This document shows positions 12,001 to 15,000 of a stretch of DNA of 42,985 nucleotides, in pieces (the stretch's first letter is position 1; the number at the start of each line of letters is the position of its first letter). The position numbers are program-made. The DNA comes from a virus (taxonomy: Duplodnaviria; Heunggongvirae; Uroviricota; Caudoviricetes): positions 1 through 42,985 of IMG/VR virus record IMGVR_UViG_2671180458_000016. One strand, given 5' to 3'.

Positions 12001-15000
12001 TTGAGGGAGTTCGCTTCAACAGCCAGCAAAATTATAACGGGCGCATGTTCCAGTCTCTTTATGCCCTGGCGACCGATGACAAGGGAGAACTGTGTTACCT
12101 GCATCAGACATTGCTTGATGGAGCTAAAAAAGCAGACATTGGTATCAGCGCCAGAAGGCTCAAATCTTTACAGGACGATAACTATCTGGACCATGCCCGT
12201 TCAGTTGCTATCAGGATGTTTCCGGTAGCCAGTACACTGGGTATAGCTGAAGGTATCGAAACCGCGTTGTCCGCACATCAGATTTACAAAGTAAATACCT
12301 GGGCAACCATTAACAGTGGTTTTATGAAAAAGTTCCGCGTACCGGCGGGAGTCACCCATCTGATTATTTTTGCCGATCGCGATGAATACAGTGCTACCGG
12401 AATGGCTGCGGCCTGTGAATGCGCACATGCAAATCTCCAGGCCCGAAATGACATTCAGCGGGTAAGTGTCCGGTGGCCTGATCATGATGATTTCAACAAT
12501 ATGCTCATGAACGGCGATCAGGTTCGGGAACTGGTTTTTTACAGAAAAAAGGCGGTTGCGTGATGCGTACGGACAATCAGGTACATAAAGCTTTATTCAC
12601 TATCCCGACGGCAGCGTACAGCGCCGTTCCGGCAAATATCAAACCTCTGCCAGAACAAAGGAGGATCACCGGACATAAACAGACTGATGCTTATCTCTGG
12701 ATTCTGGAGGTTATTCACCTGAACGAGGCCGTACATCTGGACGCAGCCGAAGCAGCACTGGAGAAACTCAAAATAACGCCGGAAGAAGCGAGTGAACGGT
12801 ATGGACGTTATTTGCAGGAGATTAATGTTGATCCTTTCCAGATTGCTTTCGCAACCATAGGCATGGATAACCCGGCGCAGGCGATCAGGAATGCCCGTGA
12901 GAATATCAAAAAAGCCGCATCAGTCAGGGCCACATTTGGCAGCTATGAGGCAGCACTCGACGATGTGGAGGCTGAGCGGATAATTCGCACCTCCCCGAAA
13001 TTTATCGACGATTACTACTGGGGCTGGACTGCGGCAGAGAAAAAAGCCGGAAGTATTGACGGTGTTCGCTCAAATGAAATTGATGATCAGCGTCGTGCAT
13101 ATGTTGATGGCTATCGTGATGTACTGCCAGAGCCTCATACATTGTCAGACGTTGTTCGTGAGTTTATTTACTGGGACTGGCTTTATGAGATGCGCCAGAC
13201 AGCGGGGAGAGAAACAGGGGACAAATACGGTTTCACAGGTGAACATCATGAGTCAGTATATGATCGGCAGTTCTGGCTCGAAAATTTGCTGGGAAAAATA
13301 AAGCCTGTGACGCGTGATGAAGCGGTTGAAGTGTGTCGCTGGTTTCTGGCAAGCGGAAAAGATGAGTACATGGAAGACAATGGTTCAGCGGTCATTCTCA
13401 ATCTGGTTGGGGAGTGTGAGCAATGAAGCCGGAGATATCCAGTAGACATTTTCCCCCTGAGCATTCAAATCAGAAAAAGTATGGTTACAGCGGAGTACAG
13501 AATAATGCGTGATATCCAACAGGTTCTGTCCCGATGGGGTGCATGGGTGGTAAATAATCATGAGAGTGTGGCATGGTCCGGCGTCGCTGCCGGATTTAAG
13601 GGCGTGATCCCATCAAAGGTTAAATCACGGCCTCAGTGTACCGATGATGATGCGCTGATTATCAGCAATTGCATGGCGCAACTGAACGTCAACAACAGCG
13701 ATTTGCATGATTTTCTGTATGATTATTATGTGTTCGGGATGACGCTTATGGGACTGGGCCGTAAGCATGAGCGCTCAGATTGCTGGGCCGGGCGGGTACT
13801 GCAAAAAGCAGAAGGTGTTATTGAGGGGATGTTGATTATTCAGGGAATAAAACTGGAAATGGACGGATACGTTGAGCGTGAACGATCAGGGGCACAGGCC
13901 AGTCAGTTTTCCGGACGTACGGGAAATTGAAAGCGCGGGGTTTTACTGTAGAATGACTGCGGGTGCTTGAGGGTGTCTGCCTCGGGCACGCCGCCGTAAG
14001 GCAGACGGAGAAAAGCCCCAGTTAACATTACGCGTCCTGCAAGACGCTTAACATTAATCTGAGGCCAATTTCATGCTGAACACATGCAGGTTAGCCTCTT
14101 ACGTGCCGGAAGGCAAGGAGAAGCAGGCTATGAAGCAGCAAAAGGCGATGTTAATCGCCCTGATCGTCATCTGTTTAACCGTCATTGTGACGGCACTGGT
14201 AACGAGGAAAGACCTCTGTGAGGTACGGATCAGAACCGGCCAGACGGAGGTCGCTGTCTTCGTAGACTACGAATTTGAGAAGTAAGAGACCTGGCGGGGG
14301 AGTAATCTCCCGCCACCTCTGATGTGTCAGGCATCCTCAACGCACCCGTACTTTATTTGTCATATGCTCCGCAAAATGCAGGTTGTCGTTGCAACCCATG
14401 CGGTAATTTTTTGTGTGCGAGTGCTCAAAAAACGTTGATTTTCATAAAAGGATGATTTTATGCTGCCAGACCAGCGACCAGCGACCAGCGACCAGCGACC
14501 AGCGACCAGCGACCAGCGACCAGCGACCAGCAGTAAATCAAGAAAGTCTGTAAAATCTGTTGAGCCGGAAATTACCGAACTGGCGAACTCATGGCTTAAA
14601 TCTTACAGGCTTGATTACAAGTTGCAGAATGCATCACTTAACGGAGAGATCGATAACGCACTGGACGCTTATTTTTCGAAAAATGGCGGCGCAGGCGGTA
14701 ATCGTCCCGACGTAAAACTCCTTGTTAAGGACAAATACGGCAAGCAGTATCCCGTTCTCATCGAGTATAAAGGCTACAAGGACAGGCTTATCAGACTTGG
14801 CAGCAACGGTATTATTGAGAACAAAGATGCCAGAAAAGAATGGAATTTTAAAAATATTAATGGATACGCGGTGAATGGCGCAGTCCATTATGCCAACGCA
14901 CTTCTTCAGTTCACCAATTACCCTGATATTATTGCTATTGGTATGACCGGCTGGCGCGATGATGGTACAGGCGAACTGCATCATGAAATCGGCGTGTGGT

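Follow-up and report, generated by a model that had tools for sequence, protein, structure and literature searches.

The DNA considered here (the window) comprises positions 1 to 42,985 of the IMG/VR virus record IMGVR_UViG_2671180458_000016, a 42,985-nucleotide (nt) stretch assigned to the Caudoviricetes and 99.98% identical to a prophage of Escherichia coli (E. coli) JNEC-KY174 that adjoins rcsB. A preliminary description placed a Hok/Gef-type type I toxin locus directly after the gene for the antiterminator Q. This observation is real and lies far beyond chance, being supported by Pfam, PHROG and the Rfam family RF01794 and, on the Q side, by PF06530. The toxin open reading frame (ORF), hok, begins 200 nt past the Q gene and occupies positions 14130..14285 of the plus strand (ATG at 14130, stop codon ending at 14285). 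Its 51-amino acid (aa) product, MKQQKAMLIALIVICLTVIVTALVTRKDLCEVRIRTGQTEVAVFVDYEFEK, matches the Pfam HOK_GEF model (PF01848; E=4e-23) over 42 of 42 model positions and PHROG 251, ‘MokW-like host killing’, with E=6e-32. RefSeq labels the locus in the identical prophage as a Hok/Gef family protein.

The hok cassette and its RNAs

The toxin ORF is preceded on the plus strand by a promoter at 13927..13954, with a -35 hexamer TTGAAA (13927-13932), a 16-nt spacer and a -10 hexamer TAGAAT (13949-13954). Ten of the 12 hexamer positions match the consensus, and the -35 box overlaps the TGA stop codon of Q (13928-13930). We aligned hok loci that included those of K-12, an E. marmotae IncY plasmid and an R1-like Klebsiella plasmid, and in every one of these the -10 box lies at a constant distance from the tac element. 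The predicted full-length hok mRNA runs from 13961, where the RF01794 match begins, to 14352 on the plus strand. The 175-nt leader (13961-14135) matches RF01794 over the full length of the model (1-157), scoring 103.2 bits where the gathering score is 59 (E=8e-24). As this match is on the plus strand, it represents the hok mRNA leader and not the antisense RNA itself.

The fold of the predicted mRNA has the features expected of the family. At its 5′ end lies the tac element (13961..13972, GGGTGCTTGAGG), which pairs with the fold-back inhibition (fbi) element at 14335..14347 (CCTCAACGCACCC); the minimum free energy fold of 13961-14352 joins these first 12 nt to fbi with z=-7.3. An RNAalifold consensus of six diverse hok loci retains the tac–fbi helix with compensatory changes at two of its 12 pairs (UA to CG and GC to AU), while 23 of 83 pairs overall are compensatory. 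Also folding, and also showing compensatory changes across the six loci (consensus columns 358-379), is a GC-rich 3′ hairpin at 14292..14315 on the plus strand. By analogy with plasmid R1, this hairpin would be the point at which 3′ trimming stops to give the active truncated mRNA. A weak Rfam match to CsrC at 14292-14315 (E=0.82) is spurious, being merely the hok 3′ hairpin.

It follows from the position of fbi that the locus extends beyond the 3′ limit of 14300 first given for it: homology to hokW, the cassette of phage 933W discussed below, continues to 14355, and a terminator-like hairpin with a run of six T residues is found at 14369..14412 on the plus strand (hairpin 14369-14403, T6 14407-14412). 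The terminator-like hairpin falls beyond the hokW-homologous cassette and is seen in the thermodynamic fold only, a consensus terminator scanner having found nothing in 13400-15000.

On the opposite strand we predict a 71-nt Sok antisense RNA (14011..14081, minus strand), at the position that corresponds to annotated sokW in 933W. Its sequence is complementary to that of the hok leader and of the first 9 nt of the mok reading frame, and the RNA is predicted to fold into a single-stranded 15-nt 5′ tail, one long hairpin and a UUUU tail (z=-4.9). The promoter that would drive it lies at 14088..14116 on the minus strand, with -35 TTGCCT (14116-14111), a 17-nt spacer and -10 TAACCT (14093-14088), and ends 7 nt ahead of the predicted start at 14081. 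This promoter is too weak for detection by a consensus promoter scanner. The -35 pattern TTGCC/TTGAC and the -10 pattern TAxxxT are nevertheless retained by most members of the diverse set of aligned hok loci; the -10 variants comprise TAACCT, TAATCT, TAAGAT and TATCCT, with that of hokC the least clear. A search for a Sok-like promoter on the minus strand, proposed in the preliminary description, thus succeeds, and at the level of sequence the locus appears to hold a Sok gene with a promoter of its own together with all the other hallmarks of the family, each present and intact.

At least three alleles of the region containing the 5′ end of mok and the 5′ tail of Sok (14040-14095) occur in Q-linked cassettes that are otherwise close (those compared being L005, L019, L020, L002 and L022), and the class represented by PhiR12_3 and E2855 differs from the window at about ten positions in the Sok recognition region. 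The window allele hardly differs from 933W sokW, which makes cross-neutralisation likely with a Shiga toxin (Stx) phage resident in the same cell.

Upstream of hok, and in the same frame, mok runs from 14073 to 14285 on the plus strand, a 70-aa frame that is open to the hok stop and whose start is inside the antisense target, the predicted Sok RNA covering 14073-14081. Its product is identical to MokW of 933W at 68 of 70 residues and to MokC at 49 of 70. The preliminary description had correctly recorded the in-frame ATG and the 70-aa ORF as a departure from the R1 type, and had likened the leader to that of R1 hok; a hok-type leader is indeed present. An in-frame mok is not unusual, however, since mok is annotated in the hok frame in K-12 mokC/hokC and mokA/hokA as well as in 933W mokW/hokW. 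The two frames differ in K-12 mokB/hokB and in the R1-like locus of the Klebsiella plasmid. An in-frame mok is by this comparison a trait of the clade and not peculiar to the window locus.

Might the active product then be a 70-aa Mok–Hok fusion initiated at 14073, made instead of or besides 51-aa Hok? The ATG is in frame, the ORF is open throughout and the same layout is retained in mokC, mokA and mokW. We regard this as improbable, given that hok has its own Shine–Dalgarno sequence (AAGGAG, 14115-14120) 9 nt before ATG 14130 and that the 51-aa hokW ORF is toxic when expressed alone (Takada et al. 2021, PMC8621323). The 19-residue extension also differs among otherwise close cassettes, reading MLNTCRL... 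in the window and MTYKLRL... in PhiR12_3; such variability fits constraint on the Sok-target RNA better than constraint on the protein.

Kinship with hokW and the state of the cassette in relatives

From 13948 to 14355 the window aligns without gaps, over 408 nt and at 92.2% DNA identity, with the annotated hokW/mokW/sokW cassette of phage 933W and the Sakai prophage Sp5. The toxin differs from HokW of 933W by a single substitution, S49F (50 of 51 residues identical), with HokD/RelF next (47/51) and HokC/Gef more distant (39/51); ‘near-identical to Gef/HokC’, as the product was first described, was therefore an overstatement. On these comparisons the locus is a hokW-type cassette, in practice a hokW allele, and so a known kind of element. 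The 933W and Sp5 cassettes (Plunkett annotation AF125520) share with it the in-frame mok, the Sok region, the sok promoter and the tac and fbi elements, and the host of hokW is likewise a 933W-like lambdoid prophage. What differs is the location. In 933W, hokW lies near attR, beyond the tail genes, on the strand opposite to the late genes and 38 kb from Q, whereas the window cassette directly follows Q and points the same way as early-right and late transcription. Another difference is the -35 hexamer, TTGCGG in 933W hokW being replaced in the window by TTGAAA from the Q stop region.

Other members of the family share parts of this organisation. The hokD (relF) gene of the Qin cryptic prophage of K-12 is also prophage-borne and has the same 3′ hairpin and fbi sequence, but its leader, mok and sok have been lost and it follows relBE, whereas the window locus keeps the full regulatory apparatus. 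The K-12 hokC (gef)/mokC/sokC locus, 74% identical at the DNA level, resembles the window in its in-frame mok and in having an antisense RNA over the mok start; its Sok-target hairpin is 18 nt shorter than that of the window and its 3′ end is broken by IS186. Plasmid R1 hok/sok (parB), a plasmid-stabilisation module that is not prophage-borne, belongs to the same family and shares its RNA logic with the window, namely tac–fbi pairing and mok-coupled translation, and its Sok promoter overlaps the hok Shine–Dalgarno region, as in the window. The R1-like Klebsiella plasmid locus can be aligned throughout with the window locus. Window Hok is identical at 23 of 52 positions (about 45%) to what we take to be the sequence of R1 Hok. 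The published figure for HokW against R1 Hok is 44% (PMC8621323).

To see how the cassette is distributed, we surveyed 5,426 complete E. coli genomes. The Q allele of the window occurs in 29 of these (33 places), and the hok cassette accompanies it in 29 of 29, with 408-409 nt between the flanks; the flank at 14356-14470 is at least 98% conserved in all 29 genomes with this arrangement. No copy of the Q allele lacking hok, that is, no empty site, was found in the survey, so the insertion event cannot be directly reconstructed.

Six related Q-linked cassettes were examined individually. In PhiR12_3 and E2855 hok is intact. In 2012EL-2448 and strain 48 it carries a +1 frameshift at codon 10, in JNEC-KY173 a -1 frameshift, and in E110019 a stop at codon 4 (Q4-stop). 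The 409-nt cassette class accounts for eight of the 29 genomes, and the three members examined are all frameshifted, by two different lesions. Lesions of this kind in the same Q–hok arrangement are what would be expected if the cassette were a decaying, non-functional relic with no role in the prophage, like K-12 hokA, hokC and hokE. For the window we consider this very improbable. Here the promoter, tac, mok, hok, the sok promoter, the 3′ hairpin and fbi are all undamaged, the toxin is one residue from the experimentally toxic HokW, and there is no interruption by an insertion sequence of the kind seen in the K-12 loci.

The hokW/sokW cassette has been shown by experiment to be a genuine type I toxin–antitoxin that helps lysis. 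HokW is toxic and is neutralised by sokW; following prophage induction Sok vanishes and HokW accumulates, about 1 h ahead of the endolysin, and phage release is halved without the hokW/sokW locus, which is to say doubled by it (PMC8621323). Drawing on homology with R1 hok/sok and Sp5 hokW/sokW, we infer where transcription of the window locus starts, how its RNA is processed, that its toxin is active and how Sok works, as follows. The sigma-70 promoter TTGAAA-16-TAGAAT would act constitutively to give a stable hok mRNA of about 390 nt, in which the 5′ tac element would be locked onto the 3′ fbi element, and because of this lock the full-length mRNA would be neither translated nor bound by Sok. 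Slow 3′ trimming to the hairpin at 14292-14315 would then free the leader. As long as the short-lived Sok RNA (minus strand, 14081 to 14011) is supplied, it would pair over the mok start, blocking translation of mok and, by coupling, of hok, and the Sok–hok mRNA duplex would be marked for RNase III. Once the supply of Sok ends, whether because the element has been lost or, as hokW demonstrates, because the prophage has been induced, the 51-aa Hok protein would enter the inner membrane, depolarise the cell and help lysis.

Q, the hok promoter and the late promoter

The Q gene, of the Q21/933W family, occupies 13505..13930 on the plus strand; the longest ORF starts at 13481 but RefSeq relatives start at the equivalent of 13505. 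Its product matches Pfam PF06530 (E=1e-44), has a distant match to Q21 structures and shares 62% identity with Q933W from end to end, the C-terminus included. Homology of the cassette to hokW starts at 13948, one base ahead of the -10 box, so the -35 hexamer and the spacer come from the Q side of the junction.

The preliminary description put forward the view that late transcription begins here and that toxin output may be tied to Q. In its explicit form this would make 13927-13954 the Q-loading late promoter and the hok leader the 5′ end of the antiterminated transcript. The promoter does abut Q, as lambdoid pR′ does, and its -35 and -10 hexamers start at distances of 11 and 33 nt from an Arg codon conserved in Q, which are exactly the offsets of the pR′ hexamers in 933W. 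The invariable linkage of the Q allele to the cassette in the survey also speaks for such a model, and a Q only 62% identical to Q933W could conceivably have a different binding site. Beyond the placement of a promoter at the 3′ end of Q, however, two features of a Q-dependent unit were not found. No TANNNT pause element occurs within 45 nt of the start of the hok leader, although weaker NANNNT matches might act as pause elements, and the promoter shows no similarity to the 933W pR′ unit beyond the hexamers, the spacer included. From the -10 box on, moreover, the sequence is 92% identical to hokW; since this -10 box and leader are common to a cassette that in 933W is far from Q and unlinked to it, hok would not be part of the late operon.

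Other evidence comes from further downstream. In Sp5, the start of the pR′ transcript and the tR′ 3′ end 258 nt downstream have been mapped by differential RNA sequencing (dRNA-seq) and Term-seq (PMC7547250). We used this published distance, instead of the Sakai coordinate, to place the start, which puts it 7 nt past TATCAT in the 933W sequence. The annotated pR′ of 933W (TTTACG-16-TATCAT) overlaps the last Q codons, and a qut element and two terminators lie beyond it. In the window, positions 17730-18030, directly after a restriction specificity gene, are 88% identical to this pR′–qut–tR′ unit. The late promoter unit so defined by homology with the mapped 933W/Sp5 unit spans 17745..18031 on the plus strand and comprises pR′ itself (17745..17772; TTTACA-16-TATCAT, 10 of 12 positions matching, predicted start near 17779), a -10-like/qut element (17785..17793, TACATTGCC) that places a -10-like TACATT at +7 of the transcript from 17779, a first hairpin (17803..17822) and the tR′ hairpin with seven T residues (18002..18031; hairpin 18002-18024), which is called as a terminator by the scanner. 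Promoter, pause/qut element and intrinsic terminators are thus all found here.

The homologue of the unit occurs once in the window. Its core of about 90 nt is conserved in the window, in 2012EL-2448 (with another specificity gene upstream), in PhiR12_3 (with other downstream sequence) and in 933W, in three different upstream contexts. The presence of a complete homologue of the mapped pR′–pause–terminator unit (PMC7547250), with a core conserved despite differing flanks, is hard to reconcile with a late promoter at 13927-13954. The pR′ segment is present in 292 phage records, and its place in those of the listed records that are annotated is the 3′ end of Q. Because the window Q is only 62% identical to Q933W, we can only infer that it uses the 933W-type pR′ at 17745-17772, and the sole support for this pairing is that the phages examined with this Q allele all carry the pR′ core and no other Q. 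With a pR′ homologue 3.8 kb downstream, hok and the restriction system would both lie upstream of the late promoter and not where late transcription begins.

Further features of the late region deserve mention. A remnant of the last codons of a Q933W-type Q is found at 17736-17757 (AAAAAACATTTTACAATCGTAA, compared with AAAAAATAGTTTACGATCGTAA in 933W); it overlaps the stop of the restriction specificity gene and carries the pR′ -35 hexamer, suggesting that the late region was acquired from a 933W-like phage by recombination. The interval from pR′ to tR′ (17779-18031, about 253 nt compared with 258 nt in Sp5) corresponds by homology to the small-RNA unit StxS of Stx phages. The window prophage lacks stx and tRNA genes, and the unit runs straight into the region that follows stxB in 933W. 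Shigella phage POCJ13 (L017) was considered as an example of a diverged Q acting on the same pR′ but proved uninformative, as the gene upstream of the core is not Q. In POCJ13 (55-648, 701-997) a 933W-type pR′ core precedes stxA and the gene just upstream has a DnaD_N domain, making this another phage in which pR′ does not adjoin a recognisable Q gene.

Taking these lines together, we consider it likely that the window holds a complete hokW-type hok/mok/sok cassette, in an E. coli prophage that is 933W-like without stx, which would work by the standard mechanism and lies outside the Q-dependent late transcript. Several points weigh against this. The match in register between the hok promoter and 933W pR′ is exact, and it leaves room for Q to have acted once, or to act still, at the hok promoter; the low probability that we still allow a Q-loading hok promoter is owed mainly to this coincidence. 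Read most simply, the register may mean that the cassette became attached at the -10 box of an ancestral pR′, whose old -35 would now serve hok. The distance of the window Q from Q933W limits, as noted, what can be said of its use of pR′. Finally, hok is broken in four of the six relatives (three frameshifts and one nonsense mutation), indicating that the cassette is dispensable in the lineage.

The prophage around the cassette and the fate of Sok

Between the cassette and pR′ lie two restriction–modification genes on the plus strand. The first (14460..16583) encodes a type IIG/BcgI-like restriction-methylase (PADLOC REase_MTase_IIG, E=3e-232; Pfam N6_Mtase) and the second (16643..17737) a specificity subunit (PADLOC Specificity_II, E=9e-21). 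To judge from the sequence, hok and this type IIG module together constitute a 3.8-kb accessory island between Q and pR′.

At its 5′ end the restriction-methylase ORF contains a perfect heptanucleotide repeat, GACCAGC (14469-14531). The nine copies in the window keep ATG 14460 in frame with the body of the enzyme, and in three relatives the array is 82, 83 and about 95 units long (L001 15539-16112, L005 6965-7545 and L002 6540-7200). The PADLOC model aligns from residue 34, just past the repeat, so that the repeat is probably in the 5′ coding region, and it is a candidate for a phase-variation switch. The short array in the window could be an assembly collapse. RefSeq starts the restriction-methylase gene downstream of the repeat, and spurious ‘YXWGXW repeat’ ORFs are annotated on the opposite strand. 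Directly before the restriction-methylase start, a 17-nt unit (TCAAAAAACGATGATTT) is repeated 2.1 times (14425-14459), as it is in all relatives examined.

The backbone of the prophage is of the short-tailed Stx phage type (e.g. 933W). Its first part runs from the integrase through early genes, a LexA-family repressor, a helicase, a toprim primase and an unknown 288-aa protein to Q; hok, the restriction–modification pair, a nanS-p-type esterase, lysis genes and the terminase, portal and capsid genes follow. The 288-aa ORF (12560-13426), between primase and Q, has a full-length match to PHROG 6204 (unknown function; E=9e-176) and no Pfam or PADLOC match, and in PhiR12_3 the same slot carries NinG/NinH-type genes. 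Between tR′ and the nanS-p esterase gene, positions 18090-18296 strongly match the small RNA family STnc100 (RF02076), with 166.9 bits against a gathering score of 47.

The orientation of the cassette bears on a question raised by the work on hokW. The loss of sokW RNA is dependent on RecA and on induction and is as yet unexplained (PMC8621323). In the window, no intrinsic terminator was detected on the plus strand between a point at about 10.3 kb and hok. As hok is co-oriented with early rightward transcription through Q, read-through following induction would meet the sok promoter head-on, and this could switch Sok off and release Hok for lysis. The geometry in 933W is comparable: when that genome is circularised, pL, int, attP, L0142 to L0139 and hokW are all on one strand, so placing hokW in the same orientation as leftward early transcription crossing attP. 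A fuller version for the window, in which the hok–restriction island was spliced exactly into the ancestral late promoter, the second, 933W-type pR′ is the one now used and induction read-through shuts off Sok, strikes us as rather unlikely as a whole. If true, read-through interference would explain the induction-dependent loss of sokW RNA (PMC8621323).

The system is thus an ordinary one, and its place is slightly unusual. Modules of the hok/sok type have already been annotated in lambdoid and Stx prophages, with one characterised, and to these the window locus itself adds little. We did not find the Q–hok–pR′ context described, and the separation of Q from its late promoter by a 3.8-kb accessory island matters wherever late or Stx-type regulation is predicted from the sequence next to Q. 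The orientation that hok shares with antiterminated early transcription, both in the window and in circularised 933W, offers a testable explanation of how Sok may be removed on induction.

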